Source: a phage. From it: 64,000 nt of DNA. This document shows, in pieces, positions 24,029 through 39,017 of this stretch. The notes beneath the pieces are model-generated. The model saw only the letters and a program-made list of their open reading frames with translations. It did not search any database and was not told the origin of the DNA. How positions within the stretch are numbered: the stretch's first letter is position 1; each line of letters opens with the position of its first letter. Location: sequence record PZ445432.1; one strand, given 5' to 3'. The position numbers were made by a program, and so were the translations under genes.

Positions 24029-24478
24029 ATGAAGGCAGCTTTGCTTTTAGTAGCTGCCCTTACCTTCAGCTTCAATAGTCATGCGACCTACGACTCAAAG
24101 CAGATTGATTGCATTGCAAAAAATATCTACTTCGAAGCACGAGGTGAGGGCATAAAGGGAATGACGGCGATTGCACACGTTACTAAAAACCGTGTTAACT
24201 CTGGTACTTTTCCTGATTCTTACTGTAAAGTAGTATATCAGTCTAACCAGTTCTCTTGGGTATCTAAGAGACCAAAAGTTGATAAAACTGATGAGGCTTG
24301 GAAAACCGCCAAGAATTTAGCTAGAGTGATATACTACGTTGATTCACCACAAGATCCTACACATGGAGCGTTATACTTCCATAGTGGTAAAGATAAACCG
24401 CGCTGGACAAAGAAGTTTAAGAAAACAACTAAGATTGAGGGACATACATTTTATAAGCCTGTTGTCACTAAAACTTAA
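24029..24478 (+). CDS. secreted SleB/CwlJ-type cell-wall hydrolase
   Basis: signal peptide plus NIYFEARGE motif typical of the Hydrolase_2 family. Confidence 0.65.
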   Translation: MKAALLLVAALTFSFNSHATYDSKQIDCIAKNIYFEARGEGIKGMTAIAHVTKNRVNSGTFPDSYCKVVYQSNQFSWVSKRPKVDKTDEAWKTAKNLARVIYYVDSPQDPTHGALYFHSGKDKPRWTKKFKKTTKIEGHTFYKPVVTKT

Positions 24479-24517
24479 AAATTTATTTGCTTAAATACTT
24501 AAACTTCTGTATAATAC
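24478..24517 (+). promoter_or_regulatory. conserved early sigma70 promoter
   Basis: aaaatttatttgcttaaat...ctgtataat. Confidence 0.55.
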
Positions 24518-24546
24518 TTTCATAAATTAATGAGAGGAAGCGAAAT

Positions 24547-24717
24547 ATGAAAAACTTGATCGTCATTGGTGTTAACACTCGCGGTATTCGTACTACGAAA
24601 ACTGTTAAAACTTCTAACGTTGCTGAGATCACTACGAACCCTAAAAAGTTTGATTTCGCCAAAGTCTCAGCAGTTATGACAGAACAATCTTTTAACCAAG
24701 CGTTAGGAATGAAATAA
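24547..24717 (+). CDS. small hypothetical protein (56 aa)
   Basis: hand-translated MKNLIVIGVNTRGIRTTKTV...; stop overlaps next start (TAATG); absent from the >=60 aa track. Confidence 0.35.
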   Translation: MKNLIVIGVNTRGIRTTKTVKTSNVAEITTNPKKFDFAKVSAVMTEQSFNQALGMK

Positions 24718-25160
24718 TGGGAGAGAATATTTTAGATGTTTTGCGTAGAGCTTTGCAGGATTCTAAGTTTAATGGTTCTGATAAAGAAGTCGCTAAAAGC
24801 TATCAGACCATAATCGGGGATCTTCAGCGTATTGATAAAGATTTCATCACTTCTGAACAATTTGTGTCTTATCTCAAAGCTCAACTAAAAAGCATTAACC
24901 AGATGAAAGCTAAACTTCATGGTCAAGATCTTGATAGTTATAGCTTGCAGTCCGCTCAGTATGAATACATTCTAAATAAGTGGTTGCAGGAGTATCTGCC
25001 TCCTCAGTTATCTGATACTGAGATTCGTAAATACTTTGCAGAATTAGTTAAGCTAAACCCTGGAATTACAAAAGGTATGCTGATGAAAGCGATTAAGGAA
25101 GAATTTCCTGGGCGTTATGATGGTGGTACTGCTGCTCAGATTGCTGGCGAATTTAATTAA
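24717..25160 (+). CDS. hypothetical protein
   Basis: ORF from track. Confidence 0.5.
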   Translation: MGENILDVLRRALQDSKFNGSDKEVAKSYQTIIGDLQRIDKDFITSEQFVSYLKAQLKSINQMKAKLHGQDLDSYSLQSAQYEYILNKWLQEYLPPQLSDTEIRKYFAELVKLNPGITKGMLMKAIKEEFPGRYDGGTAAQIAGEFN

Positions 25161-25200
25161 AAATTTATTTGCTAAATGCCTATAAATTCTGTATAATATA
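25160..25200 (+). promoter_or_regulatory. conserved early sigma70 promoter driving an ORF-free region
   Basis: aaaatttatttgctaaatgcctataaattctgtataat. Confidence 0.55.
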
Positions 25201-25201
25201 T

Positions 25202-25993
25202 TAATAAATTAGAGAACAGCGGGCCGATTACGCTGAGTGCAGAATCCAAACCGGAGTGCATTGAATAGAGTCGGTGGGTTAGTTGTAAAACTAGTACACA
25301 GTGGGCGGCAATCCCGGTTAGTGGCTAGAACGTGTAAAATGGGGCGTCTGAAACCTCTCCCCTAAACTCTTCTCTAGTTTATAAATAGTGGGGTGTGGAA
25401 ATCACTTATGTAGTAACACTGCCGATCTAGTATAAACGGTATTATCAAGCCGTAACTGGTGGAAGATGTAGGTTCGAATCCTACGATCGGTAAGAACTGG
25501 ATAACTGGTGCTTTTAACGTAAAAGCTTCCGAGGTTAGTTGCGCACTGCCTAAACCACGCGGTAGTTGGTTCCAGACTAACCAACCAGTCTGCTGAATAG
25601 TTTTATTACGATTTAACTATGTCCAGGCTAAAGAAGAACTTTAGAAGGTATTCTAGGTGGTGAAGTTTTTCCTCCATATCGGAGTAGTTTTTCAAGCTAC
25701 CAACAAAGTGGGAAATGCTGACATGAGAGATGTCACTAATGGTGCACAATAGCACAGGTAATTCGCGATAACTCCTGTTGAGTAGCAGCAAAAGGCGGGA
25801 AGTCATGACCCCAAGCCTAACCGAGTCCTCAATATACCGCAGGACATAACCACTAAGTCACCCTGACTTAAACTGGAAAATAATAGACGTTACTGTATTT
25901 TGTCTTGAAATACTTAATGAGTGAGACTTATGACTCTCCCGGTATCGTCTGTATTTTTAAGAGTTTTTACGAGAGTTCTTAAAAATACTTAAA
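25202..25993 (+). ncRNA. candidate non-coding RNA region (ORF-free, promoter-driven)
   Basis: ~800 nt downstream of a consensus promoter with no plausible plus-strand ORF; contains hairpins and one tRNA-like element. Confidence 0.3.
25421..25492 (+). other. tRNA-like element (canonical T-arm and acceptor pairing, other arms unresolved)
   Basis: gtaggttcgaatcctac T-arm; gccgatc/gatcggt acceptor; D and anticodon arms did not fold canonically by hand. Confidence 0.35.
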
Positions 25994-26068
25994 CGGGGTG
26001 TAGTCTAAGGGAGAGGCAGGAGTCTTCTAAATTCCTTTATGCAGGTTCGAATCCTGTCACCTCGGCCA
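25994..26068 (+). tRNA. tRNA-Arg (anticodon UCU)
   Basis: hand-folded cloverleaf: acceptor cggggtg/cacctcg, D stem gtct/aggc, anticodon loop cTTCTaa, T-arm gcaggttcgaatcctgt, encoded CCA. Confidence 0.8.
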
Positions 26069-26102
26069 ATTTTATTAACTGTAACTAAAACAAAGGAAAT
26101 AT

Positions 26103-27050
26103 ATGTTTAATACTAAAAATATGAAAGAACTGACTTCTGAGCAAAAAGTAATTCGCACTATTAAACGTTGGGGTATTGGTTCTGTAGTTGGTTTAGCAGG
26201 TTTAATCCTAGCTTTTAATTCATATACTATTGTTTCTGATGGTACAGTTAAAACCCAAACATTTCTGGGTAAAGTAGATCCTAACCCAGTATTACCTGGT
26301 TTCCATCTTGTAAACCCATTTGCATCTTTCGATACTTTTAGTACAAAAGATATTGCTGTAAAATTAGATAAACTTCAGGTTCCTAGCCAGGATAAGTTTA
26401 AATCCACTGTTGACCTGACTGTTATGTTGCAGTTTGATGGTTCTAAGGCACCGATCAACCGTATTAATGCAGGTACTCAGGATCAGGCGTTAGACAAATA
26501 TGTTACTGAAAAATTACTGTCTACCATCCGTGAGTTTGGTAAGTCTGTACCTAAAGCACAAGATTTGTTTGATGCTAAAATTCAAGCACAATTACAAACT
26601 GCAATTCAACAGGAAGTTGAAGAGTATGCACGCCCTTATGGTTACACAGTTAAGCAAGTGTTCCTTCAGGATATTACATTGCCACCGGTAATTATGGAAC
26701 AGGTACAGAATACCAAAGTTCGTGAAGAACAAGTTAATGCTGCGAAAGCTGAATTGGCTCGTGTTGAACAAGAAGCACAGCAGAAGGTTAAACAAGCAGA
26801 AGCAGATCGTGAAGCTCGTAACAACCAAGCTATTGCAAACGAACGTGATGCAGATGCTAAACTGTATGCAGCTAAGAAAGAAGCCGAAGCTAACGCCGCT
26901 CTGCAACGTACTATTACTCCTGAGATGATTCGCTGGAAACAACTAGAAGTTGAAATGACTCGTGCTCAGAAGTATCAAGGTGGTGTGCCTCAGACTGTAG
27001 TAGGTACTGGTTACGATGGTCAAATGATCATGGATATGCGTAACAAGTAA
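26103..27050 (+). CDS. SPFH (band-7 / HflK/C-like) domain membrane protein
   Basis: N-terminal TM segment, SPFH-like core, C-terminal coiled-coil QEAQQKVKQAEADREARN. Confidence 0.65.
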   Translation: MFNTKNMKELTSEQKVIRTIKRWGIGSVVGLAGLILAFNSYTIVSDGTVKTQTFLGKVDPNPVLPGFHLVNPFASFDTFSTKDIAVKLDKLQVPSQDKFKSTVDLTVMLQFDGSKAPINRINAGTQDQALDKYVTEKLLSTIREFGKSVPKAQDLFDAKIQAQLQTAIQQEVEEYARPYGYTVKQVFLQDITLPPVIMEQVQNTKVREEQVNAAKAELARVEQEAQQKVKQAEADREARNNQAIANERDADAKLYAAKKEAEANAALQRTITPEMIRWKQLEVEMTRAQKYQGGVPQTVVGTGYDGQMIMDMRNK

Positions 27051-27073
27051 TAGTTACACGTAATCTTCGAAGT

Positions 27074-27114
27074 AAGCCCTGTGTTCCCTGGAGAGCGCAG
27101 GGCTTTTCTGTTTT
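27074..27114 (+). terminator. rho-independent terminator
   Basis: aagccctg...cagggctt hairpin followed by ttctgtttt. Confidence 0.65.
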
Positions 27115-27264
27115 AAGGTAGAGGATAAGTGTGTCTCTTTGGTCACTCAGCTATGACAAATACTTTACACTATATCACATTGAAAATCAAGTGGGGATAA
27201 CAATTTTGGGGTCTATCCACTTACCTGCTACCCTTAAGCATCCTGTTATTTTCCTCTAAAAAGT

Positions 27265-27308
27265 TAAAAAATTCAATTGCTTGAATGCTAAATTCTCTGT
27301 ATAATATA
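27265..27308 (+). promoter_or_regulatory. conserved early sigma70 promoter
   Basis: aaaaaattcaattgcttgaatg...ctgtataat. Confidence 0.55.
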
Positions 27309-27337
27309 CTTATAAATTTGAGAGAGAGGAATCTAGT

Positions 27338-27856
27338 ATGACTGTTGATGAACTAACAGAACATCTCTTATCTAGAGGGTTTGATACAGATAAGTATCAT
27401 TGCTGGTTAAGTCCGGAAGGATGGCTAACAGTCCCGTTGTATGACTTCTCTGGGATGTTGAGAGGCTATCAGACTTATAATCCTTCTGCTCCAAAAGGTC
27501 ATGGTAAGTGCCCCTTTGAAGCTAAATATTTTACTTATTCAACTACACAGTGTGTATGGGGATTAGAAACTCTCAATGGAGATGAAAAAGTAGTATTGAT
27601 TGCTGAATCTGTATTTAAGGCAGTTGCGTTACATAACGCTGGTTATCCAGCCCTGGCAATGTTGGGTTCTTCCCCCGGAAAAGCATTGTTAAAGCAATTG
27701 AAATTATTACCTTTTAAATTGGTAGCTGTCGGAGATAATGATCCTGCGGGTGAAAAATTTGCTAGAAAATTAAACGGCTTTGTTTCTCCTGTAGATGTAG
27801 ATGAGATGTCTACCGAAAACTTGAAAAATTTTCTTGCTATGAAGCTAAATTTCTAA
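27338..27856 (+). CDS. hypothetical protein
   Basis: ORF from track. Confidence 0.5.
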   Translation: MTVDELTEHLLSRGFDTDKYHCWLSPEGWLTVPLYDFSGMLRGYQTYNPSAPKGHGKCPFEAKYFTYSTTQCVWGLETLNGDEKVVLIAESVFKAVALHNAGYPALAMLGSSPGKALLKQLKLLPFKLVAVGDNDPAGEKFARKLNGFVSPVDVDEMSTENLKNFLAMKLNF

Positions 27857-27864
27857 TATAATAT
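27830..27864 (+). promoter_or_regulatory. sigma70 promoter for the tRNA cluster
   Basis: ttgcta, 17-bp spacer, tataat, embedded in the 3' end of the preceding ORF. Confidence 0.45.
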
Positions 27865-27876
27865 ATTTATAAATTC

Positions 27877-27965
27877 GGAAGAATAGCATAACGGTATTGC
27901 AGCAGATTGCTAATCTGTCGGTTTGAAATATAGCCTTGTGGGTTCGATTCCCACTTCTTCCGCCA
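27877..27965 (+). tRNA. tRNA-Ser (anticodon GCU), type II
   Basis: acceptor ggaagaa/ttcttcc, anticodon arm gcaga-ttGCTaa-tctgt, long variable arm, T-arm gtgggttcgattcccac, CCA. Confidence 0.8.
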
Positions 27966-27971
27966 AATTCT

Positions 27972-28049
27972 GGTTCTCAAGCTCATATGGTATGAGCACC
28001 CAGCTCATAACTGGAAGGTACGTAGGTTCGAATCCTCGGGGAGCCACCA
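27972..28049 (+). tRNA. tRNA with CAU anticodon (Met or Ile2)
   Basis: anticodon loop ctCATaa; D stem gctc/gagc; acceptor ggttctc/gggagcc with G-U pairs; T stem imperfect; CCA. Confidence 0.6.
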
Positions 28050-28068
28050 AATTAAATAAGGACAACTA

Positions 28069-28257
28069 ATGGAATTATTCATAGTTTCTGTTAAATTTGC
28101 ACAAGATAGAGAACGTTCGGATGAGTTTAAACAAGGGTACAGACTAGTAAAGGCTACATCTGAACTCCATGCTATGGACAAAGTAGTAGACTATATGTAT
28201 AATGTAGAAGATGTTTACTACGTCAATGCTTTAGAAGCCTCAAAAGTAATTGACTAA
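28069..28257 (+). CDS. hypothetical protein
   Basis: ORF from track. Confidence 0.45.
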   Translation: MELFIVSVKFAQDRERSDEFKQGYRLVKATSELHAMDKVVDYMYNVEDVYYVNALEASKVID

Positions 28258-28266
28258 GGAGACTAT

Positions 28267-28452
28267 ATGTCTAAGTTTCAAGAACTCAAGCAAGAGCTAG
28301 AAGAATGTGCCTGCCCTGAGTGTAGAGGAATTGGTGAAAGTTCTGATGCAGAAGCAGTGGATACTTTTTGCAATATCTGGGTTTGCCCAAATTGCAAGGG
28401 TACAGGTATTAATCCTAACTGTGGTATTTCTCTAGATATTGAAAGAGGATAA
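28267..28452 (+). CDS. small Cys-rich zinc-ribbon-like protein
   Basis: CACPEC...CNIWVCPNC paired Cys motifs. Confidence 0.45.
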   Translation: MSKFQELKQELEECACPECRGIGESSDAEAVDTFCNIWVCPNCKGTGINPNCGISLDIERG

Positions 28453-28552
28453 TACCTGTGAAACTAAAAGATTATTATATTGGTTGGTTTGTGGGACTAG
28501 TAGTAGGATTTTCACTAGGCTATAATATGTATCAACTAATAAACTGATTACA

Positions 28553-28627
28553 TGGGGGTGTAATCGAATTGGCATAGGTACTGTACTTAAAATTCAGGTT
28601 TTGTGGGTTCGAATCCCAGCGAGGCGT
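28553..28627 (+). other. tRNA-like element (unresolved fold)
   Basis: gtgggttcgaatcccag T-arm; no canonical acceptor partner found by hand. Confidence 0.3.
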
Positions 28628-28675
28628 AACTGCCTGGTGTGATAGAGGCATCATTCCACTAATATTGGAAAACTA

Positions 28676-28906
28676 ATGAAACGAAAATTAAAAAAATCTT
28701 ATATAATTAAGATAAATAAGCTAAGAAGTAGGGCAAAAGGATGGCCACTTCGGATATTAATTGCGGATAACCATATTAGATACCATGCGGAACAACGTCA
28801 TTATAAACAGTGGGAGTCATACTGCCGCTCAAAAGCAGGTCGTTTAGATGGATCTTATGAGTTTCTATTTGGTAAGAAGCCTACTAGAGTAGCTTTAGGT
28901 AATTAA
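28676..28906 (+). CDS. hypothetical basic protein
   Basis: ORF from track. Confidence 0.4.
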   Translation: MKRKLKKSYIIKINKLRSRAKGWPLRILIADNHIRYHAEQRHYKQWESYCRSKAGRLDGSYEFLFGKKPTRVALGN

Positions 28907-28992
28907 TACTTGGAAGAGCAAATCGAATTGGCGACGAAAACCGCTTGGAAAGTGGCTGACCGGTAAAACGGCTTGAGAGTTCAAATCTCTCC
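28902..28992 (+). tRNA. tRNA-Ser (anticodon GGA), type II
   Basis: acceptor ggaagag/ctcttcc, anticodon loop ttGGAaa, long variable arm, T-arm gagagttcaaatctctc, CCA. Confidence 0.8.
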
Positions 28993-29004
28993 TCTTCCGC
29001 CAAA

Positions 29005-29099
29005 CAATTTATATGGTAGGTCAATCCAACGGCTGGCGCTGGACTCCGACTTGAAATCGGTTGATCGTAGTGATACGGTGTAAGGGTTCGATCCCCTTA
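29005..29099 (+). tRNA. tRNA-Ser (anticodon UGA), type II
   Basis: acceptor ggtaggt/acctacc, anticodon loop cTTGAaa, long variable arm, T-arm aagggttcgatcccctt, CCA. Confidence 0.75.
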
Positions 29100-29465
29100 C
29101 CTACCTCCAAATCTTGAAGTATGCCGGAATCGGTAGACGGGGCTGCCTAAAAGGTTTATAGGGAACATCCACTCCCTGCAACATACCTCATAAAGCGGCT
29201 GAGATAAATGGTCTATCTCGTGAAGGTTCAAGTCCTTCTGCTTCTTGATACATCTATGGCTCAAAGTGTAACGGTGCTATTTGATGCTCTTGGTAAGACT
29301 TCCCCGACATGCGTTCGGGAGTAAGCTGCTAAGACTAGAGTAGAAGAGTTTCTGAGAGCCGCCACAATTGAAAATTCGTACTCGTCTTGAGCTGCGTGCA
29401 ATAGGAGATAACTTGATTAGTATTCTAGAACATGCTAATTGAGGATGGTTTCGCTAACCCTGCGA
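29100..29465 (+). ncRNA. candidate structured RNA region including a tRNA-like T-arm (29212-29228)
   Basis: ORF-free 365 nt between tRNAs; gaaggttcaagtccttc T-arm-like hairpin; 13-bp inverted repeat ccacaattgaaaa/ttttcaattgtgg (29353-29365 and 29457-29469). Confidence 0.3.
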
Positions 29466-29542
29466 GTTTTCAATTGTGGCTATATCATAATTGGTTAATG
29501 ATCCTGATTGTGAATCAGGCCTATGTGGATTCGAATTCCACT
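29466..29542 (+). tRNA. tRNA-His (anticodon GUG)
   Basis: acceptor gtggcta/tagccac, D stem tcat/atga, anticodon arm cctga-ttGTGaa-tcagg, T-arm gtggattcgaattccac, CCA. Confidence 0.8.
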
Positions 29543-29577
29543 AGCCACCCCAAATTAACTTAAATAGGAAATAAAAT

Positions 29578-29775
29578 ATGGCTGATTTCTGCAAACAATG
29601 CTCCATTGATATGTGGGGCAGAGATACTGGTGATCTTTCTGGTTTGATTACAGAAGCCGAAGTCAAAGAAGGTTATGGTGCAGTTGTGGTTTGCGAAGGA
29701 TGCGGAGTTATTCGAGTAGATCATGAAGGCAAACGTTTAGAAGAACCGGAAAATTTAGGAGAAACAAATGAGTAA
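29578..29775 (+). CDS. small zinc-ribbon-like protein
   Basis: CKQC ... CEGC paired Cys motifs. Confidence 0.45.
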   Translation: MADFCKQCSIDMWGRDTGDLSGLITEAEVKEGYGAVVVCEGCGVIRVDHEGKRLEEPENLGETNE

Positions 29776-30004
29776 TGCTTTAATTAGTGAAATTATGTTA
29801 ACACGTCTTGCAGAACTGCAAACTCTTCGAGATGAATCTCAGAATAACTTATCCTACCATAAACAGATGGTAGATACTCTTACTACTCGTATTGAAACTT
29901 ACGAGCGTGATATTGCAGCATTACAAGCTCTTTTCTCCGTATCAGCACCAGATACGTTAGAACAGCCTGCTGTATCTCAGCCAGTAGAGACAGCATCTAG
30001 TTAA
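29768..30004 (+). CDS. hypothetical coiled-coil protein
   Basis: ORF from track. Confidence 0.45.
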   Translation: MSNALISEIMLTRLAELQTLRDESQNNLSYHKQMVDTLTTRIETYERDIAALQALFSVSAPDTLEQPAVSQPVETASS

Positions 30005-30013
30005 TAGCATTTT

Positions 30014-30089
30014 TGGAGTGTAGATCAATTGGCAGATCGTCGGCCTCTGACTCCGAAGGTTCCTGGTTCGATCCCAGGCACTCCAGCCA
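30014..30089 (+). tRNA. tRNA-Gln (anticodon CUG)
   Basis: U1-A72 acceptor tggagtg/cactcca, D stem gatc/gatc, anticodon loop cTCTGac, T-arm cctggttcgatcccagg, CCA. Confidence 0.75.
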
Positions 30090-30095
30090 AATAAT

Positions 30096-30171
30096 TGGAG
30101 AGTAGTGTAACGGTTAGCACAACGGCCTTTGACTCCGTTAATGGTAGGTTCGATTCCTCCTTCTCCAGCCA
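30096..30171 (+). tRNA. tRNA-Gln (anticodon UUG)
   Basis: U1-A72 acceptor tggagag/ttctcca, anticodon loop cTTTGac, T-arm gtaggttcgattcctcc, CCA. Confidence 0.75.
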
Positions 30172-30178
30172 AAATAAT

Positions 30179-30253
30179 GCGTGATTAGTTCAGTGGCTAG
30201 AACAACTGGCTTCCAACCAGTAGACACGAGTTCGACTCTCGTATCCCGCACCA
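30179..30253 (+). tRNA. tRNA-Gly (anticodon UCC)
   Basis: anticodon arm actgg-cTTCCaa-ccagt, D stem gttc/gaac, T-arm acgagttcgactctcgt, CCA; one U-C mismatch in acceptor. Confidence 0.75.
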
Positions 30254-30267
30254 AATAAGGAATCTCT

Positions 30268-30519
30268 ATGCACGTTTTTGAGTTTCGTAATAAAAGTACC
30301 AATAAACGAGTTATTGTTATTGGGGAAACATATCGAGCATATGAACAAACTGACGGCTCTGTTATCTTGAATGATGAGAAAGGGGGTTTTAGCTTTTATC
30401 CAGAAGAACCTTATGAAGAGTTTCGAAAACAATTTAACCTAGACTGGAGAAAGCATTTAAACACTGTTGCTTCATCTGTAGTACTGCCAACTACCAGTAC
30501 TGTACTATCTAATGGCTGA
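30268..30519 (+). CDS. hypothetical protein
   Basis: ORF from track. Confidence 0.45.
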   Translation: MHVFEFRNKSTNKRVIVIGETYRAYEQTDGSVILNDEKGGFSFYPEEPYEEFRKQFNLDWRKHLNTVASSVVLPTTSTVLSNG

Positions 30520-30676
30520 TAACCTAAAAGTCAAGATCGACAAACAAAAGAAACGTGTAGAAGTAGAGATTGGTGAAGAACGTGTAGCCTTCACCTTTGA
30601 ATTTCTACAACAAATGGCAATGACAGTTATGACTGATAAGTCTCCTGTTATTGAAAAAGAAATCCCGTTGAAATAA
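30512..30676 (+). CDS. small hypothetical protein (54 aa)
   Basis: hand-translated MADNLKVKIDKQKKRVEVEIGEER...; followed by cccgttgaaataacggg hairpin. Confidence 0.3.
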   Translation: MADNLKVKIDKQKKRVEVEIGEERVAFTFEFLQQMAMTVMTDKSPVIEKEIPLK

Positions 30677-30684
30677 CGGGTTCT

Positions 30685-30771
30685 GCTGGGTTGGCAGAAT
30701 GGTTGAATGCACCTGATTTGTAATCAGGAGGAGTAATCCCGTTGCAGGTTCGAATCCTGTGCCCAGCACCA
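30685..30771 (+). tRNA. type II tRNA, anticodon read as UGU (identity uncertain)
   Basis: acceptor gctgggt/gcccagc, anticodon arm cctga-ttTGTaa-tcagg, 15-nt variable arm, T-arm gcaggttcgaatcctgt, CCA. Confidence 0.55.
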
Positions 30772-30785
30772 ATTTAAGGACTATT

Positions 30786-31311: not shown

Positions 31312-31326
31312 TGTAAATATTTTAAT

Positions 31327-32038: not shown

Positions 32039-32353
32039 GTGGATCGAGCATTAAGACGTCATCACCGGCAACGTGTAAAGAACAACCGCAAGAAGTATTG
32101 GACAGTCTTCCCACATGAAGAAAGCCCTAAACGGTTAGGTATTATCACTACTACTCCTTGTATCTGTTCTTGTTGGATGTGCGGGAACCCTCGCAAACAC
32201 TTTAAGAATAGTAAAGCAGGGATGAAAACCTCGGAGATTAGGAAAATGGAAGCAATGATTACGGATATTTCAAATGATGAATTTGATGGCTTCGTAGGAT
32301 TCGGGGAAGATATTAGCTCGGACTGTTTCGAAGATGAGCTCCCAGGTCTATGA
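32039..32353 (+). CDS. hypothetical basic Cys-rich protein
   Basis: GTG start with AGGAG RBS; CICSCWMCGNP cluster. Confidence 0.5.
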   Translation: MDRALRRHHRQRVKNNRKKYWTVFPHEESPKRLGIITTTPCICSCWMCGNPRKHFKNSKAGMKTSEIRKMEAMITDISNDEFDGFVGFGEDISSDCFEDELPGL

Positions 32354-32362
32354 TTAATAACA

Positions 32363-32398
32363 AACCCCAGCTATTGAATAAGTAGTCTGGGGTTTTTC
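32363..32398 (+). terminator. rho-independent terminator
   Basis: aaccccag...ctggggtt hairpin followed by tttt. Confidence 0.65.
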
Positions 32399-32474
32399 TG
32401 TATACAGGTAGATAATTTATGTATAATAAAATTCATCCACATTAGGTTAATTCAAAAGACTTAATGGAGGTAAT

Positions 32475-32822
32475 ATGAGCCGTACTTATCGTAGACAAAC
32501 TGGTGATCAGTGGTGGAAGTCTAAAGCTAATTACACCCAGGGATATACTTTCCTCAAAGCAAGTGACTACTACATTCGTGTTACTTATGCTAAATCCTGG
32601 GATGAGGTAGAACAGGAAATGGAAGAAGCAACCATTCGTAATGAGAAAAAGGATGGTTATAGCTGGAATTCTGTTAGTAAGAATGTTAAGTGGCATTCTA
32701 ATAAAATGGTTCGTCAAGGAAATCGTCAAGAACTCCACCGCGTGATGAAAGACCCAGAAAATTACGACTATAATCGCGATCATGACATGCGTAAGCGTGG
32801 GTTACGGTGGTGCTATGACTAA
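32475..32822 (+). CDS. hypothetical protein
   Basis: GGAGG RBS. Confidence 0.5.
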   Translation: MSRTYRRQTGDQWWKSKANYTQGYTFLKASDYYIRVTYAKSWDEVEQEMEEATIRNEKKDGYSWNSVSKNVKWHSNKMVRQGNRQELHRVMKDPENYDYNRDHDMRKRGLRWCYD

Positions 32823-32829
32823 ATTCTGA

Positions 32830-32870
32830 AATAATTCATTTGCTAAACCTCTCTTTTCTTGCTATAATAT
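32830..32870 (+). promoter_or_regulatory. conserved early sigma70 promoter
   Basis: aattcatttgctaaacc...gctataat. Confidence 0.55.
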
Positions 32871-32898
32871 ATTTATAAATTGATGAGAGAGGTTTGAA

Positions 32899-33180
32899 AT
32901 GAAAACTCGTCTAGACTGTGCTGTTCATGTTCTTGAACATGATGTTGTGGGAACCTGTATGTCTTATCACGAAGCAGGTCGTTTAATTAAAGAACGTGTG
33001 GCAGATGTATGTGGGTTGAAGATTACTGCTGAGGAAGCTGATGATCTTCTAGACCAGGCACTGGGGAAAACAGAAATATTCCTCTGCGATTCCTGCTCCT
33101 GGTGGTGTGAAGCTCACGAACATTCCTTCAACGATTATGATGTATGCCGTGACTGTAATGAGGGGGACCATGATGAATAA
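32899..33180 (+). CDS. hypothetical Cys-rich protein
   Basis: ORF from track; C...CDSCSWWC...CRDC. Confidence 0.5.
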   Translation: MKTRLDCAVHVLEHDVVGTCMSYHEAGRLIKERVADVCGLKITAEEADDLLDQALGKTEIFLCDSCSWWCEAHEHSFNDYDVCRDCNEGDHDE

Positions 33181-33472
33181 GTTTATTGTTGCACTGATGG
33201 TTTCAGCAGTTAGTTTCGGTTCTCTAGCATCTACCAAAGTTTTTATGAAAAACGGTAATGTTAGGGTACAACAGAATGGTATTATTACCGAGTATGGTAA
33301 AGTGCGTGATATTAAAGAACGTAATGGCAAAGTAGAAATATATACTAATAAAAACTTCTCTACTCCAGCCGTTACTGTTAGCAAACGCGGTGAAATAACC
33401 ACTCAACGTACTAATAGCTCTAGTTCTTTTACTTGTCGTTATGATTGCGACTTTGAAGGTGAAGATGAATAA
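33170..33472 (+). CDS. secreted hypothetical protein
   Basis: signal-peptide-like MMNKFIVALMVSAVSFGSLAS; track start 33107 trimmed to the internal ATG. Confidence 0.5.
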   Translation: MMNKFIVALMVSAVSFGSLASTKVFMKNGNVRVQQNGIITEYGKVRDIKERNGKVEIYTNKNFSTPAVTVSKRGEITTQRTNSSSSFTCRYDCDFEGEDE

Positions 33473-33815
33473 TTTAGATCCTAGAATTAAATTTGCAATT
33501 ACAGAAATCCAAGATCAAATTGATGAAGACTTCACTGTTTGGTCAAGGTCCGGTAACGGGGAATACTGCCAGCTTTATAGCATGAAAATGGGTATCTCAA
33601 TTGAGCTTAATATCAACTCTGAAGGTAGAGTAGAAGCCCAACCCATGTTCAGTGTTCCAGGCTTCTCTGGATTTGTTGCAGGTATGAAATTGTGTCTACC
33701 AAATAACCATCTTCATCGAGTTATTTGTCAACTAGAGACTATTAAACACTTCTTGCCAGAAGGTAATATTAATGACTACTACCATGAAGTTGTAGCAGCT
33801 CATATGATGAAATAA
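33465..33815 (+). CDS. hypothetical protein
   Basis: internal ATG with GAAGG RBS. Confidence 0.5.
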   Translation: MNNLDPRIKFAITEIQDQIDEDFTVWSRSGNGEYCQLYSMKMGISIELNINSEGRVEAQPMFSVPGFSGFVAGMKLCLPNNHLHRVICQLETIKHFLPEGNINDYYHEVVAAHMMK

Positions 33816-33837
33816 TGCAAACGTCGGAGAGAAGAAC

Positions 33838-34134
33838 GTGAAAAGACTAAACATCAACAGCACAGTGCAGATTCCAGCAACTAAGGATATTTTAACCTTC
33901 CTACGGAGTGAAAACGCTCAGTTTTGGCATGATCATGTTGTAAAGAACGGTAGTACTCCAGATGTAGTTGCCTTTGCTAAAAAACGTATCGAGGAGTACA
34001 AAGATCCAGAGATTAAAGATGGTATGATTACTATGCAGTTGTGGGTAGCTATGCAAACCTTTGGCCCCACCATGTGTTTAGGAAATACTCCATTATTTAC
34101 AAATATTTTAATTAATGAAAAGGATTTGAAATGA
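33838..34134 (+). CDS. hypothetical protein
   Basis: ORF from track. Confidence 0.5.
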   Translation: MKRLNINSTVQIPATKDILTFLRSENAQFWHDHVVKNGSTPDVVAFAKKRIEEYKDPEIKDGMITMQLWVAMQTFGPTMCLGNTPLFTNILINEKDLK

Positions 34135-34415
34135 TTGTTTCTCCATTTGCTCTTTGGTTCGTCATTGGGTCTATAGTTGCTATTTATAGTCTAATAGATG
34201 ATTTATTCATCTCCAAGAATAAAGATGTGTTCTTATATGTTGCACACAAAACACGCCCATCAGACCTAGCACCTCTTGATGATAAAACGCTACTAAGATG
34301 TGCTAGAGCTGCAATATTTATTATGGATATTCTGCTAGGACCAGCATCTGTATTTTTCTATTACCGAAAAACTCGTAATATGAAAAAATTTAAAGCAGAA
34401 ATGCAGAATAACTAA
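34131..34415 (+). CDS. small membrane protein
   Basis: hydrophobic N-terminal helix. Confidence 0.5.
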   Translation: MIVSPFALWFVIGSIVAIYSLIDDLFISKNKDVFLYVAHKTRPSDLAPLDDKTLLRCARAAIFIMDILLGPASVFFYYRKTRNMKKFKAEMQNN

Positions 34416-34489
34416 AGAACTCGCGTAGGACCGAGTTGCGTCACCTGCAACTGTTACGGATAAGGGAGTCGTGCCCCTTAGTGCGGTAA

Positions 34490-34870
34490 GTGGTGAGTTG
34501 GTCGCTGACCCTAACTGGAGATGATATGACTATATTACTAATTCTTGTTACTACCTGGTTTTTAATCGGTGCTGGATATGCAATAGCTATTATTAGACAT
34601 TTGGATGAACATTCTGCTGAATGGTTTGTTAAATATCTACGTATAGACAACAAGGATCACGAGTTTAAAGATGAAAAGCAGAAAAAAGCAGTTGAAGAAA
34701 TGACAGGCGAAGAATGTTTATTCTATATGCGTGCAATAGGATTCTTAGGATTATTTAGTGCTGGCCCACTAGGTTTTACCATAGCTCCTTATAAAGAAAC
34801 AGTAGACGATATTAAGTTATGGAGAAATGCAGGGGTACTACGCAAAGCTAGAGAAACTAATATTACATAA
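34490..34870 (+). CDS. membrane protein
   Basis: two hydrophobic segments. Confidence 0.5.
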   Translation: MVSWSLTLTGDDMTILLILVTTWFLIGAGYAIAIIRHLDEHSAEWFVKYLRIDNKDHEFKDEKQKKAVEEMTGEECLFYMRAIGFLGLFSAGPLGFTIAPYKETVDDIKLWRNAGVLRKARETNIT

Positions 34871-34913
34871 GATTGACACTAAGTCAGCTTACTAGCAAAA
34901 GCAAATAATGACA

Positions 34914-34950
34914 AAGCCCAGCCTGCACTTTTGCAACTGGGCTATTTTTA
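34914..34950 (+). terminator. rho-independent terminator
   Basis: aagcccag...ctgggct hairpin followed by attttta. Confidence 0.6.
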
Positions 34951-34954
34951 TAAT

Positions 34955-34995
34955 AAAATTTTAGTTGCTTAGATGCCCAAACTTTTGTATAATAT
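34955..34995 (+). promoter_or_regulatory. conserved early sigma70 promoter
   Basis: aaaattttagttgcttagatg...tgtataat. Confidence 0.55.
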
Positions 34996-35024
34996 GTTTA
35001 TAGATTGAGGCAAGAGGATTAAAT

Positions 35025-35705
35025 ATGAGGATTATTTCTAAGTTCGCCGATGTGTATGATCTGCAGAACAGTTTGTTTGACCCAGATCGTGTGTGGGAAC
35101 GTAAAACTGAAGAGCTAACAATAAAAGCCCCAGATGATGACAACTATACGATCATGCAAGAACGTAGGATTGCTCGTATTGAGGGAAAGATTGGTTACTT
35201 TAAAATTTTGCCTTTCTTCCTAGCTGGGGAGATTTACTGGTTATACCACATTGATGTACTGGATACCCAAGTAAAAACCTTCAGTTTGGACGAGGCGTTA
35301 GAAATTTTGGAGGAGAAGGGATGGTCAACAGGGTTTTCTTTGCTAGACATAAATAGGGGGAAGCCAAAAGAGTCTATCTTAGCATGGCAAGAAGAAGTTA
35401 CCCCCAAAGCTAAAGAAGCCTTAACTGAGTTAAGAGTACCCTTAGCAATTCTAGACTCAGTAGTTCCAAATGATAAAGATAACAATAAATACTTCAAGGT
35501 TATAACTAATCCACGCCTACACCTATCAGGAATACCGTGGCAGAGTGTGGAACCTAACTTATATCGACTGCACCAAAGAATCGAGCAGTATATTTGGGGT
35601 GTACTAGGAACTGGTGAGCCTGATATGATTACTGTGTCAGATAAAGACCGCCTAGCAGCACATGGATTTGATACGGTTACGTCATTCAGGAATATGAAAA
35701 GATGA
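35025..35705 (+). CDS. hypothetical protein
   Basis: ORF from track. Confidence 0.55.
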   Translation: MRIISKFADVYDLQNSLFDPDRVWERKTEELTIKAPDDDNYTIMQERRIARIEGKIGYFKILPFFLAGEIYWLYHIDVLDTQVKTFSLDEALEILEEKGWSTGFSLLDINRGKPKESILAWQEEVTPKAKEALTELRVPLAILDSVVPNDKDNNKYFKVITNPRLHLSGIPWQSVEPNLYRLHQRIEQYIWGVLGTGEPDMITVSDKDRLAAHGFDTVTSFRNMKR

Positions 35706-36145
35706 TAAAAAACTTTATTAGTTCTCTATGGCAAGGTAAATGGTATATCCTGGGAGCAGGTCTAGCGATAGGCATCGGATTCGGTGCTTATCACTTAGTA
35801 GATAAAGTGGAGACTTTAGCAGGAGATCTTGCGGTAGCTACTAAAAAGATTTCTTCCCTAGAAACTTCCCTCAATAAGGTGAAAGCTGAAAGCGAACTTC
35901 GTGAGACTAGAATGAATCAGTATTTCACAATGAATAATATTTCGCAAGCAGATCTAGACAAAAAGATTAAGCAGTTAGATAAAGCTCTTAGTCGCCAAGA
36001 TATTATAGCTGCAAAGCCTGGATTGGTAACATTAATTGCTAAAAAGCAGAGTAAAGAATTTGAGGAGAGATTAGCATGTCTTTCTGGAAGTGTGGAATAC
36101 TGCTCGCAGCCGCAATCACAATCACAGGCTGTGCACAAGAAATAA
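35702..36145 (+). CDS. membrane-anchored coiled-coil protein
   Basis: N-terminal TM helix then heptad-like region. Confidence 0.5.
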   Translation: MIKNFISSLWQGKWYILGAGLAIGIGFGAYHLVDKVETLAGDLAVATKKISSLETSLNKVKAESELRETRMNQYFTMNNISQADLDKKIKQLDKALSRQDIIAAKPGLVTLIAKKQSKEFEERLACLSGSVEYCSQPQSQSQAVHKK

Positions 36146-36429
36146 AGCCAGAGCCCTCTCATGAGCTACCAACAGCTCACGTAGATTGGCCTAAAGGACT
36201 TCAACCTTGTAGCTTTGACTTTAAGTTTGAAAAGAAAGTAGCTACAAATGGAGAAGAGGGCGTAGTAGTTGTTGTACCATATAAAGATTGGAATATGTTG
36301 GCAAAATGCCGTGAGGCAGAATATTCCTTTATTTCACGACTGACTAGTATGGTTTGCTTCTATCGCCAAGATTTACAAGAAAAACGTTGCTTAATTTACT
36401 ATCCACCCATTAACAGTAGGAAAGATTAA
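36076..36429 (+). CDS. putative lipoprotein
   Basis: signal peptide with lipobox-like ITGC; overlaps the preceding ORF in another frame. Confidence 0.45.
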   Translation: MSFWKCGILLAAAITITGCAQEIKPEPSHELPTAHVDWPKGLQPCSFDFKFEKKVATNGEEGVVVVVPYKDWNMLAKCREAEYSFISRLTSMVCFYRQDLQEKRCLIYYPPINSRKD

Positions 36430-37181
36430 TGTCAGTATTAGTAGGTTTACATGGCGAGGCAGGTGCAGGAAAAGATACCGTTGCAAAATTAATTATCGAT
36501 TGGTGTAATGACACGTATCCAACGTGTTTACCACGTCGTTACAGTTTTGCTAAACCAGTTTATGAGCTTGCATCCGTAATCCTCGGGGTAACTCCAGAGT
36601 TTCTAGGAGAGCGCAGGGGAAAAGAAATTGACCAATGGTTTACGGTCACACAATCTCAATTGGAGCGAGCTAGAGACGTATGGTTTAAATATGGTATCGA
36701 TAAGTTTGAAGACTTCTCGTACGTTTGGCCGATTTTTGAGGAAAAATATCTTAATCCTCAACAACTTATCTCAGAGAATAAAGAAGACGGACTTTATAGT
36801 TTATTTATTTCTCCGAGAAAAATGTTACAGCTCGTAGGAACAGAGCTAGGAAGGCAGCTGGTACATGAACGCATTTGGCTCATAATTCTGGAGCAATCCA
36901 TCGCTAAAGACGACCCAGATGTCGCCGTAATAACAGATGTGAGATTCCCCAATGAAGGAGAGTTACTCAGAGAAACGAACCATTTAGATATGGATTCTTT
37001 ACTAATAAATGTAGTGCCCGCTGAGCAGAAGTTCACTATTAAATCAGATCATCCATCTGAAAGTGGTATTCCTACAAAATATATCACTCACGAATTAGTT
37101 AATAAATTCGATGGTATCAATAACCTTAAACTAGAAGTGTATAACTTCTGTGACTTAGAGCTAGAACCACTAGTTGGATAA
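36429..37181 (+). CDS. dnk: deoxynucleoside monophosphate kinase
   Basis: P-loop GEAGAGKDT; size and position consistent with T5 dNMP kinase. Confidence 0.7.
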   Translation: MSVLVGLHGEAGAGKDTVAKLIIDWCNDTYPTCLPRRYSFAKPVYELASVILGVTPEFLGERRGKEIDQWFTVTQSQLERARDVWFKYGIDKFEDFSYVWPIFEEKYLNPQQLISENKEDGLYSLFISPRKMLQLVGTELGRQLVHERIWLIILEQSIAKDDPDVAVITDVRFPNEGELLRETNHLDMDSLLINVVPAEQKFTIKSDHPSESGIPTKYITHELVNKFDGINNLKLEVYNFCDLELEPLVG

Positions 37182-37193
37182 TCAAGGATTGCT

Positions 37194-37787
37194 ATGGCTA
37201 ATAAAAAAGAAGAAAAGACTAACCTGTTTCACTCCATTCGCCAATCTAACGAGTATACCTTTTTCTTTGATGAAGAACTTGGTCCGCCTGATGAATACCG
37301 TGATTTATCAATGGTACTTATGCAGGCAAATGAGGACGACGAAATTAATCTGATGATTAATGGCCCTGGTGGCTATGTTGATACCGCTGCACAGTTATCT
37401 AACTTAATTGCCAATTGCCGTGGAACAGTTATAGGACATCTGATTGGTCCTAGTGCTTCTGCTTATTGCACAATTTTCCTATCCTGTCATAGATGGGTAG
37501 TACATCCACATGCTACGCTAATGGGACACACGTTCTCTGGCGGATTCTGTGAGAAAGGTCAAGAAATCAAGAAAGCCTATGAATCTTACAACAAGTTTGT
37601 AGAAGATATGATGCTAGATGTCTACTATCCGTTCTTCTCAATAGATGAAATCGACGAGATGGTAAAAGACAACAAAAATATCTATCTAGATAGCAAGGAA
37701 ATTCATAAGCGTATTGAAATCTTGGCAAAATATCGATCTGAGCAATATAATAAAGCCCAGTTACCTCAATCCTGGGGGCACAACTAA
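37194..37787 (+). CDS. ClpP-like serine protease
   Basis: INGPGGYVDTAAQ and GPSASAY...H.H...MGH resemble ClpP catalytic-core motifs. Confidence 0.55.
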   Translation: MANKKEEKTNLFHSIRQSNEYTFFFDEELGPPDEYRDLSMVLMQANEDDEINLMINGPGGYVDTAAQLSNLIANCRGTVIGHLIGPSASAYCTIFLSCHRWVVHPHATLMGHTFSGGFCEKGQEIKKAYESYNKFVEDMMLDVYYPFFSIDEIDEMVKDNKNIYLDSKEIHKRIEILAKYRSEQYNKAQLPQSWGHN

Positions 37788-37803
37788 GAGTAAGTAGTTT
37801 TAA

Positions 37804-37835
37804 GCCAGGGTTTAACGACCCTGGCCTTTCTTTTA
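37804..37835 (+). terminator. rho-independent terminator
   Basis: gccagggtttaacgaccctggc followed by ctttctttt. Confidence 0.65.
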
Positions 37836-37905
37836 TCTAAAATTCTTCTTGACAACGACATAATTTTGTGCTCCAAGTGTAACGTTTAAAAACCAATTGA
37901 AATTT

Positions 37906-37936
37906 TCCTCCAAAATTAGTATAATGGTACTGGTTA
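37906..37936 (+). promoter_or_regulatory. sigma70 promoter (TTGAAA, 17-bp spacer, TATAAT)
   Basis: ttgaaattttcctccaaaattagtataat. Confidence 0.5.
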
Positions 37937-37950
37937 GAGGAGGTTACAAA

Positions 37951-38607
37951 TTGGAAAAGTTCTTACAATTATTAACAGTACTGCTCCAAGAAGCGAAAGA
38001 CCCAGCATCGCTTCTTAAACGTCTGCTAACTATCTTAGTTGCTGTCATTATTTTCTTATTTGTTAGTAATACTAGTGAGGTGATGTCATTCTTAAAGACT
38101 TTCTCCACGTCTGCGGTTCTACAGGATGTTCAAACTCAAAGGATAAGTAATTTTCCTAACGTAGCTAGAGAAAAGAGCATGGTGCTTTTTTCCCAAACGG
38201 GTGCGGATGCTGTTTTTGTAGTCAAGTATAAACCCGATGCCATTAATGATTATTCTAACATTATTGCATGGGAAAGCAATGCGCAATTAGATAGGGCTGA
38301 CTTGGCTGATAAAGCGGTAAATAAGACGTCTGAGCTATATAGACGTCACTTAGACGGCTTTAACTACGCATCGGATTTAAGTGTAAAAGTAAATAAATAC
38401 ATGGGGTTAAATATACCTGCGTTTAAGAACGTTACTTTTAATTACATATACACTTGTCCGTATTTCAATCTAAACAATATCTATGCTGGATATATTGGTA
38501 TTGCTTGGAAAGATAATCCTGTAGATACAGCTGATTCTGAACAGTTCAAGGAATATTTAGCAAAGCTCTGTTCCCCACAACAGAGATCTTTAGGTAGGTC
38601 AATATGA
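37951..38607 (+). CDS. holin-like membrane protein
   Basis: TTG start 7 nt after GAGGAGG; TM helix LLTILVAVIIFLFV; immediately upstream of and overlapping the endolysin gene. Confidence 0.5.
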   Translation: MEKFLQLLTVLLQEAKDPASLLKRLLTILVAVIIFLFVSNTSEVMSFLKTFSTSAVLQDVQTQRISNFPNVAREKSMVLFSQTGADAVFVVKYKPDAINDYSNIIAWESNAQLDRADLADKAVNKTSELYRRHLDGFNYASDLSVKVNKYMGLNIPAFKNVTFNYIYTCPYFNLNNIYAGYIGIAWKDNPVDTADSEQFKEYLAKLCSPQQRSLGRSI

Positions 38608-39017
38608 GTTTTAAATTTAGTAAAAGAAGTTTAGATAGATTAAAGGGTGTTCATCCAGATTTAGTAAAAGTAACTCATAGAGCTTTAGAATTAAGCCCAT
38701 ATGATTTTACTATTACAGAAGGATTACGTTCCTTAGAACAAAGCGCCCAAAATATTAAGAATGGAACCTCGTTTTTAAAAGACCCGAGCAAGTCAAAACA
38801 CGTACAAGGGCTGGCTGTTGACTTTGCTCCTCTTAAAAATGGGGAGATTGATTGGAATGATTTAGAATCATTCAAATTAGTGGCAGATGCCTTCTTTAAG
38901 GCAGCAGAAGAGCTAGGAGTAAAGATTAGATGGGGTGGTGATTGGAACCAGAACGGAAGTTATAAGGATGAAATCCAACGTGGTACTTTTGATGGCCCAC
39001 ATATAGAATTGATTTAA
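38604..39017 (+). CDS. lys: endolysin, L-alanyl-D-glutamate peptidase (M15-like)
   Basis: 137 aa; H..GLAVDF and DGPHIEL zinc-peptidase motifs; matches T5 endolysin size and family. Confidence 0.8.
   Translation: MSFKFSKRSLDRLKGVHPDLVKVTHRALELSPYDFTITEGLRSLEQSAQNIKNGTSFLKDPSKSKHVQGLAVDFAPLKNGEIDWNDLESFKLVADAFFKAAEELGVKIRWGGDWNQNGSYKDEIQRGTFDGPHIELI

Follow-up and report, generated by a model that had tools for sequence, protein, structure and literature searches.

The 64,000-nucleotide stretch of phage DNA analysed here (sequence record PZ445432.1; hereafter the window) carries genes for two peptidoglycan-cutting enzymes of unrelated families, a putative SleB/CwlJ-type cell wall hydrolase at 24029-24478 and a putative M15-type L-Ala-D-Glu endopeptidase at 38604-39017, the latter adjoining a holin gene at 37951-38607. 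The three open reading frames (ORFs) were proposed at these positions in an initial annotation, and hidden Markov model searches place each of them in its family (Hydrolase_2, Peptidase_M15_4 and Phage_holin_T, respectively) far beyond chance; as had also been proposed, the two enzymes are encoded in separate transcription units, 14 kb apart. All three genes lie on the + strand, as do the promoters, terminators, upstream gene and spanin genes described with them below. Between positions 23000 and 40000 the window is a 100% match in megablast searches to Escherichia phage HildyBeyeler (Bas33; MZ501074 / NC_105119), a T5-like coliphage (Demerecviridae, Tequintavirus), while the other matches to this region are hundreds of T5-like Salmonella and Escherichia phages at 80-97%. 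The HildyBeyeler record annotates the same three ORFs as 'putative cell wall hydrolase' (bas33_0077), 'holin' (bas33_0142) and 'endolysin' (bas33_0143), and their orthologues in T5 are T5.083 (for which RefSeq gives the product 'endolysin'), T5.041 (gene C1, holin) and T5.040 (lys). We consider these gene identities, and the anatomy of the locus set out below, to be close to certain.

The hydrolase bas33_0077 is synthesised as a predicted precursor of 149 amino acids (aa) with a single domain of the SleB/CwlJ fold, an assignment on which Pfam, PDB sequence comparison and an AlphaFold2 (AF2) model converge. It covers the Pfam model Hydrolase_2 (PF07486) from position 1 to 100 of 100 (E=5.7e-25, 88.3 bits against a cutoff of 27), and matches the SleB structures 4F55 and 4FET with E about 1e-8 at the level of PDB sequences. 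The AF2 model, derived from an alignment of 24 homologues, has a predicted local distance difference test (pLDDT) score of 92.3, and its only significant PDB neighbours in a Foldseek search are these same two structures (E about 1e-5, the next match having E=2), with target-normalised template modelling (TM) scores of 0.77-0.80, a root-mean-square deviation of 2.2 Å and 30% identity. The Pfam search gave no match to PG_binding_1, the N-terminal peptidoglycan-binding domain.

The initial annotation made its case depend on the catalytic residues of SleB-type enzymes being present in the ORF at 24029, and the alignment finds the decisive glutamate in place. The predicted catalytic residue, E36 (codon 24134-24136), stands in the motif Y-F-E-A-R-G-E and aligns with position 26 of the 4F55 chain and position 120 of 4FET; this corresponds to E151 of SleB, the numbering having been worked out from chain length (the 128 residues of 4F55 fit residues 126-253), and we take E151 to be the catalytic glutamate of that enzyme. 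E36 is invariant (78/78 homologues), and R38, G44, R55 and H139 are invariant or nearly so in the same set. Furthermore, two cysteines, C28 and C66, occur together in 77 of the 78 homologues and are missing together from the remaining one, with no case of one alone, and because they co-occur in this way they probably form a disulfide in the periplasm; the alignment shows no such pair in Bacillus SleB. The predicted mature protein has 130 aa, a mass of 15 kDa, an isoelectric point of 9.7 and a Lys-rich C-terminus, high basicity and Lys-rich C-termini being a general trait of Hydrolase_2 lysins from phages of Gram-negative bacteria according to one survey (PMC8223927). The enzyme is probably a lytic transglycosylase.

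Pfam, fold and N-terminal features together uphold the proposal that this SleB/CwlJ-type hydrolase bears a signal peptide. Residues 1-19, MKAALLLVAALTFSFNSHA (24029-24085), comprise the n-, h- and c-regions of a Sec-type signal that is predicted to be cleaved before T20, at the start of the sequence TYD. The segment has one positive charge, a hydrophobic core of 13 residues that is rich in Leu, Val and Phe (6 of the 13 being weakly hydrophobic), and S at -3 and A at -1 (an S-H-A/T site, the slash marking the cut). Its best 11-residue window has a hydropathy of 2.6, and its best 19-residue window reaches only 1.21, below the transmembrane range, and therefore it reads as a signal peptide rather than a membrane anchor; inspection of the N-terminus revealed neither a lipobox nor a twin arginine. 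Nearly all of 80 homologues have an N-terminal signal, the sequence of which drifts while a cleavage site of the A-x-A type is kept, in forms that vary from FSSQA/S and PAYA/T to VVA/K, SANA/K and others, and a few of the 80 have a lipobox or a longer anchor instead. Among homologues in other phage families, that of rV5 has a cleavable signal and that of PaoP5 an N-terminal anchor. We therefore think it very probable, judging from these features, that the hydrolase is exported to the periplasm, which a Sec signal would allow it to reach on its own, without the holin.

The holin and the endopeptidase form a compact unit of their own, expressed from a sigma70 promoter at 37897-37925 (TTGAAA-17-TATAAT, 11/12 consensus matches) whose sequence is identical in T5 and annotated there as a promoter. 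A terminator scan found an intrinsic terminator on either side: one at 37804-37825 (9-bp stem with 6 GC pairs, then a T-run) that closes the upstream operon of spanins, deoxynucleoside monophosphate (dNMP) kinase and Clp-like protease, and one at 39027-39044 (7-bp stem with 6 GC pairs, then TTTTT) that ends the unit, and terminators are annotated at both equivalent places in T5. The holin, a homologue of T5.041 / gene C1, is a T-type (class III) protein of 218 aa that is 95% identical to the T5 holin and matches Phage_holin_T (PF11031) with E=4.3e-113 (376.9 bits, cutoff 22.2). A single hydrophobic segment at about residues 21-39 (hydropathy 2.44) is followed by a predicted periplasmic C-terminal domain of about 175 residues, which contains two cysteines (169 and 207). 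The TTG at 37951, proposed in the initial annotation, is the real start of the gene: GAGGAGG lies 7 nt upstream, and the T5 holin gene has the same promoter, ribosome-binding site and TTG. A longer ORF beginning with the TTG at 37897 was rejected, because this triplet opens the -35 hexamer of the promoter and the ribosome-binding site lies in front of 37951.

The stop codon of the holin gene and the ATG of the endolysin gene overlap as ATGA. The endolysin, a homologue of T5.040 (lys) with 137 aa, is a predicted zinc-dependent M15C L-alanyl-D-glutamate endopeptidase, as had been proposed; it matches Peptidase_M15_4 in Pfam (E=2e-9) and aligns end to end, over residues 1-137, with the EndoT5 structures 2MXZ/8P3A (E=4.2e-57). 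H66, D73, D130 and H133 can be read off its sequence, and in EndoT5 we take H66, D73 and H133 to be zinc ligands and D130 to be the catalytic aspartate. It has neither a hydrophobic segment nor a signal sequence, and since there is no hydrophobic segment it is predicted to be a cytoplasmic, holin-dependent L-Ala-D-Glu endopeptidase. Its relationship to the T5 enzyme is rather distant (65% aa and 66% nucleotide identity, with synonymous divergence, dS, of about 1.8), while the adjacent holin is conserved (95% aa and 93% nucleotide identity, dS 0.29), and on this account lys appears to be a swapped, mosaic allele within an otherwise conserved unit.

The initial annotation had set the hydrolase against the lysis cassette by placing it 'among the early genes', and this contrast falls away, since both units lie in the T5-type early region and have sigma70-type promoters, so that being 'early' does not set the hydrolase apart. 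It is the second gene of a two-gene unit with a sigma70-type promoter at 23136-23164 (TTGCTA-17-TATAAT, 10/12 matches in a consensus scan), and a promoter is annotated at the equivalent place in T5, upstream of T5.084; the hydrolase gene follows its upstream neighbour, bas33_0076, after a gap of 12 nt and has the ribosome-binding site AAGGAG. Published RNA sequencing of Bas33 at 20 min after infection, with two replicates (PMC13250531 supplement), gives 1826 and 1267 transcripts per million (TPM) for bas33_0076, 1630 and 1410 for the hydrolase, 1072 and 845 for the holin, 898 and 686 for the endolysin, and 5136 and 3009 for the major capsid gene bas33_0007 (PMC13250531). When infection is arrested after first-step transfer (FST), these genes fall to about 5 TPM or below (PMC13250531), and hence the hydrolase gene is active at the same time as the lysis genes, along with the other post-FST genes, and does not belong to the pre-early class. 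The near-equal values for bas33_0076 and bas33_0077 accord with one two-gene unit. The implied difference in timing is not borne out either: hydrolase, holin and endolysin all stand at about 700-1,600 TPM at 20 min, and none is pre-early.

Relative to T5, the holin has a ratio of non-synonymous to synonymous substitution rates (dN/dS) of 0.08, and the values for the spanins (0.16-0.17), the endolysin (0.17) and the hydrolase (0.20) are similar to one another. A hydrolase protein at least 60% identical occurs in 519 phage records, and 522 records share the 17-kb region in megablast searches; more distant homologues are found in about 930 further phages of Gram-negative hosts. In the CRISPRi-ART knockdown screen of T5, the holin was scored 'Fit', and lys, T5.083 and the spanins 'Not Fit' (PMC11879866 supplement).

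Several neighbouring genes bear on how the locus is read. The lysis cassette had been described as holin plus endopeptidase; both genes stand, but the description had missed an i-spanin and o-spanin pair at 35702-36429, 1.5 kb upstream of the holin, in the preceding, separate operon with the dNMP kinase and the Clp-like protease. The i-spanin (35702-36145; T5.045 homologue; PHROG 739, Rz-like spanin, 3.6e-37) has an N-terminal transmembrane helix, WYILGAGLAIGIGFGAY, and a coiled-coil periplasmic part, and the o-spanin (36076-36429; T5.044 homologue; PHROG 812, 4.3e-28) has a lipoprotein signal with the lipobox ITGC. The genes overlap at 36076-36145 and both are annotated in the HildyBeyeler record; transmembrane i-spanin, lipobox-bearing o-spanin and overlapping genes make this a two-component spanin of the Rz/Rz1 type. 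The spanin operon is headed by a homologue of T5.047 at 35025-35705 (226 aa, PHROG 4243), which has neither a Pfam match nor a membrane segment; in the CRISPRi-ART screen, T5.047 is among the few function-unassigned genes with a 'Fit' score (p=0.0002). The protease at 37194-37787 is a ClpP/NfeD-like serine protease (with a weak NfeD1b_N match), and an SPFH/Band-7 membrane protein is encoded at 26103-27050. In bacteria, an NfeD protease and an SPFH protein are usually encoded in one operon; here their genes are 10 kb apart and flank the tRNA region.

Directly after the endolysin terminator, 39093-39509 encodes a 138-aa multi-pass membrane protein, a homologue of T5.039 (in which four transmembrane domains are annotated); the gene has no obvious promoter of its own and the protein no family match. 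This could be a lysis-associated membrane protein, and knockdown of T5.039 came nearest to significance among the listed 'Not Fit' neighbours in the CRISPRi-ART screen (p=0.088). At the other end of the region, the gene upstream of the hydrolase (23195-24016) is a homologue of T5.084 with an HNH_3 module fused in frame at its N-terminus; Pfam places cREC_REC at residues 173-257 (1.3e-12) and HNH_3 at residues 73-107 (5.4e-11), whereas T5.084 has 105 aa and consists of the receiver domain alone, without the HNH part. The product is annotated as an 'intein-containing hypothetical protein', with an intein that would begin at Lys3. Pfam returned no Hint/intein domain in it, and the gene has the appearance of a homing-endonuclease ORF fused in frame, not that of a genuine intein.

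T5-like lysis is usually told as the work of one holin, one endolysin and the spanins, and a conserved, expressed and predicted-exported second enzyme does not fit this account. The explanation that we favour overall, with a confidence a little better than evenly balanced and with its weight on an accessory role in lysis, is that the T-type holin would make large holes in the inner membrane, through which alone the M15 endopeptidase, translationally coupled to the holin, would reach the wall, while the hydrolase would already enter the periplasm on its own, independently of the holin, as its sequence suggests. From the periplasmic side the hydrolase would cut glycan strands, the endopeptidase would cut peptide stems, and the two enzymes might speed lysis or render it more robust, each serving in part as a back-up for the other. 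That the hydrolase itself acts as an accessory or back-up lysin of lytic-transglycosylase type, independent of the holin, is a claim for which we consider the case evenly poised.

Precedents in other systems argue for a role of this kind. All Vequintavirinae carry a signal-bearing SleB-like protein, one of which, CB7_83, is toxic on expression in E. coli (PMC7344957), and phage CB7 also has an EndoT5-like M15 peptidase, and thus the same pair as Bas33 in an unrelated family (PMC7344957). A type VI secretion system effector of the SleB fold, acting from the periplasm, makes E. coli cells round up and burst, an effect that an E-to-Q change at the equivalent glutamate abolishes (PMC11148199). In Kayvirus, the Sec-secreted, transglycosylase-like protein Tgl has been described as an 'additional endolysin', transcribed from an early promoter and acting alongside LysK (PMC7150955). 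In our assessment, the toxicity of CB7_83, the Tgl precedent and the results of the T5 lys knockdown lean towards the accessory lysis role. The last of these, in which the holin is 'Fit' and neither lys nor T5.083 is, allows for redundancy between the two hydrolases, and such redundancy would explain why knockdown of T5 lys costs nothing and knockdown of the holin does. One may go further and suppose that the secreted SleB-fold enzyme is functionally redundant with the M15 endopeptidase as part of a general dual-attack strategy of large virulent coliphages, in which a pre-positioned periplasmic transglycosylase would be combined with a holin-released peptidase, the pairing being found in Demerecviridae and Vequintavirinae; this wider proposal we put forward tentatively, and hold to be doubtful.

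A number of observations weigh against an accessory lysin. Bacillus SleB needs muramic-delta-lactam, which E. coli peptidoglycan does not contain, so that the hydrolase is assumed to act on the host wall by analogy with distant relatives. With the spore_SleB equivalog model (TIGR02869) it reaches 52 bits, far below the cutoff of 236.5, and it aligns with model positions 79-201 only, the catalytic part; on sequence, it is to be counted as a member of the SleB fold family only, and not as a SleB orthologue. If a muralytic enzyme were active in the periplasm long before lysis, the cell should be in danger of lysing prematurely unless the enzyme is weak or regulated, and beside the hydrolase we found no regulator, periplasmic inhibitor, immunity gene or small holin of the kind seen in Certrevirus; a signal or a transmembrane segment is absent both from the 56-aa protein encoded downstream and from a YqeY-like protein. 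The partner gene in the transcription unit, of cREC/HNH type, has no tie to peptidoglycan or lysis, and the expression data come from a single time point. Finally, the virion gene N4 is likewise scored 'Not Fit' in the CRISPRi-ART data (PMC11879866 supplement), which points to false negatives if N4 is essential, and the 'Not Fit' scores of lys and T5.083 are consequently only a hint of redundancy.

An alternative, also raised in the initial annotation, is that the exported hydrolase remodels the wall during infection without contributing to lysis, possibly by loosening or enlarging the sacculus, by opening the mesh for envelope-spanning complexes such as the spanins, or by altering peptidoglycan turnover. 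Export independent of the holin would suit such a task, as would the position of the gene, far from the lysis genes and beside the cREC gene and the tRNA region, and the homologue in rV5-like and Pakpunavirus phages is likewise found among early or DNA-metabolism genes. In Zymomonas, a SleB homologue encoded on the chromosome has a part in the remodelling of peptidoglycan and in fitness (bioRxiv 10.64898/2026.07.21.739787). The hydrolase is also transcribed by 20 min together with replication genes, and knockdown of T5.083 had no fitness effect in the laboratory. However, transcription of the holin and the endolysin coincides with that of the hydrolase in time and level, and timing therefore cannot separate the two roles, and the Vequintavirinae homologue is toxic in E. 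coli and implicated in lysis; to our knowledge, moreover, no specific need for remodelling exists in T5 infection, and we consider this explanation unlikely. The same 'Not Fit' score of T5.083 could be taken as a sign that the gene was acquired and can be dispensed with, and that its product has hardly any catalytic function in E. coli or none, whether it binds the wall or is an enzyme that finds no substrate in this host. The dependence of Bacillus SleB on muramic-delta-lactam would be in line with this, as would rare truncated copies in close relatives, such as P0030 (102 aa, without signal or E36) and P0034 (96 aa). Yet the gene is kept in essentially all T5-like genomes with a dN/dS of 0.20, conservation extends to the catalytic glutamate, the motif around it and the cleavage site of the signal, transcription is strong and relatives are toxic to E. 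coli, all of which makes loss of function quite improbable.

Two further explanations turn on where the protein would reside. In the first, the hydrolase would be a membrane-tethered or latent exported endolysin that becomes active once the holin collapses the membrane potential, on the model of signal-arrest-release (SAR) endolysins and of Lys44 of fOg44. In the AF2 model the N-terminal hydrophobic segment leads straight into the catalytic helix, some homologues (such as PaoP5 and P0062-P0072) have longer, Gly/Ala-rich N-terminal anchors, and latency would explain why early export spares the cell; the history of T4 RI also teaches how difficult it is to distinguish a SAR domain from a cleavable signal by sequence alone (PMC8385771). 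Against this stand a core of only 13 residues that is rich in Leu, Val and Phe and not in Gly, Ala and Ser, the 19-residue hydropathy of 1.21, and a canonical A-x-A-type cleavage site that is conserved while the rest of the signal varies. The partner holin, besides, is of the large-hole T-type and not a pinholin. As predicted, then, the protein has neither the uncleaved Gly/Ala/Ser/Thr-rich transmembrane domain nor the pinholin that mark SAR endolysins, and we judge a latent enzyme improbable, if slightly less so than a functionless one.

The other explanation, action at entry, had been raised in the initial annotation and finds almost nothing in its favour: a virion-associated lysin that digests peptidoglycan as DNA enters is a role to which we attach next to no probability. 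Domains of the SleB fold do occur within very large proteins (over 1,000 aa, possibly virion proteins) of Agrobacterium and Rhizobium phages, and elsewhere the fold may thus be used at entry, but in a different architecture. The Bas33 protein appears instead as a free-standing secreted precursor encoded in the early region, not among the tail and structural genes, and a 149-aa Sec precursor of this kind would leave the cytoplasm, where virions assemble. In the jumbo phage PA5oct, the homologue gp368 is absent from a virion proteome of 93 proteins (PMC7318152), and muralytic activity at entry has been published for the T5 tape-measure protein pb2 (Boulanger 2008, as cited in PMC3326045). In the tape-measure protein of Bas33, Pfam gave TMP_N and TMP_C only, with no muralytic domain, and the virion proteome of the T5-like phage AKFV33, in which four proteins were identified, is too shallow to exclude virion association (PMC3326045).

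If the hydrolase backs up or speeds the endolysin, as we propose, this would explain the missing phenotype of the T5 lys knockdown. It would also matter for the engineering of lysis-deficient or lysis-timed T5-like therapeutic phages, and would offer enzybiotic work a small, very basic enzyme fold active against Gram-negative bacteria.

The window as a whole is 100% identical to the HildyBeyeler record except for a deletion of 5,040 bp in the tRNA region. The missing segment corresponds to about 71,667-76,706 of MZ501074 and holds about 10 tRNA genes and about 10 small ORFs (bas33_0092-0108). Its junction, at 28598-28618 of the window, is a 21-bp stretch that is present at both ends of the missing segment and contains the tRNA T-arm motif GGTTCGAATCC, which points to an origin by recombination between tRNA-like repeats, as far as the sequence allows one to judge. 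A different deletion at the same tRNA locus (69,093-78,836) has been reported from another laboratory's Bas33 stock and from T5 variants (PMC13250531). ARAGORN made no call for the tRNA-Leu(TTA) that spans the junction, nor for tRNAs Met, Ser(TCC) and Ser(TCA), annotated in the record, at 27972-28049 and about 28913-29110, where it called the neighbouring genes; predictor thresholds or unusual tRNA structures could be the cause for the Met and Ser genes. The last 481 bases (63520-64000) are the apparent start of the terminase small-subunit gene, position 1 of MZ501074, as deduced from an ATG, a ribosome-binding site and offset arithmetic, and consequently the window would cross the arbitrary ends of the deposited record, as a differently permuted assembly of a near-identical phage.

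That two lysins are arranged in this way is already known: the genes carry annotations in GenBank and RefSeq, and published descriptions exist for both T5-like phages and Vequintavirinae, with discussion in at least three papers. An M15 endolysin beside a holin and a distant ORF with a SleB domain were described for AKFV33 in 2012 (PMC3326045), and the same pairing was described for Salmonella T5-like phages in 2024, with an explicit call for experiments (PMC11180984). Literature searches with T5 locus tags found nothing in main texts, the data having sat in supplements. What we add is the anatomy of the transcription units, the checks of catalytic residues and signal, the conserved cysteine pair, the link to the Bas33 RNA sequencing and T5 knockdown data, and the argument against a role at entry.

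With reference to known systems, the closest relatives of the hydrolase are T5.083 (YP_006911) and the Markadamsvirinae orthologues, annotated as 'cell wall hydrolase SleB' or 'spore cortex-lytic enzyme precursor', to which it is orthologous. T5.083 likewise has 149 aa, is 89% identical, and shares the signal peptide, the promoter position and the neighbours (T5.084 upstream, T5.082 and T5.081 downstream); apart from the in-frame HNH module in the Bas33 homologue of T5.084, nothing essential differs. In the lysis genes proper, the Bas33 endolysin aligns end to end with EndoT5 but differs from it at 65% identity, in contrast to 95% for the holin. The comparison with Bacillus SleB/CwlJ (4F55, 4FET) is more distant: the catalytic fold and the glutamate in a Y-x-E-[AS]-R-G-E motif are common to both, whereas the phage protein lacks the PG_binding_1 domain of SleB (being single-domain, as is CwlJ), has a cysteine pair, belongs to a phage whose host has no muramic-delta-lactam, YpeB or GerQ, and is predicted to act in a Gram-negative periplasm.

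Among phages of other families, the SleB-like protein of Vequintavirinae (CB7_83, CR3_087, rV5) shares with the Bas33 hydrolase a free-standing Hydrolase_2 domain and a cleavable signal, and its gene also lies away from any classic lysis cassette, in rV5 just upstream of rIIA/rIIB. It too coexists with a second, cytoplasmic peptidoglycan hydrolase, in CB7 the EndoT5-like M15 peptidase (PMC7344957). The two proteins differ in being about 40% identical over the catalytic domain and in having their cysteines at other positions; in Certrevirus, furthermore, a small membrane protein with two transmembrane domains overlaps the gene, whereas no such ORF is found beside the Bas33 hydrolase. A predicted signal and separateness from the main endolysin are shared more widely with Sec-exported phage lysins (Tgl, Lys44 of fOg44 and the SleB-like proteins of Vequintavirinae). 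Tgl of the Staphylococcus phage K group (Kayvirus) is likewise a second wall enzyme of transglycosylase type with its own Sec signal and a promoter for host RNA polymerase (PMC7150955), and it has been shown experimentally to lyse cells once the membrane is permeabilised (PMC7150955). It differs from the Bas33 hydrolase in its IsaA/SceD-like fold, in its Gram-positive host and in lying a few genes from lysK instead of 14 kb from the endolysin gene, and its function rests on experiment, whereas that of the Bas33 enzyme is inferred.

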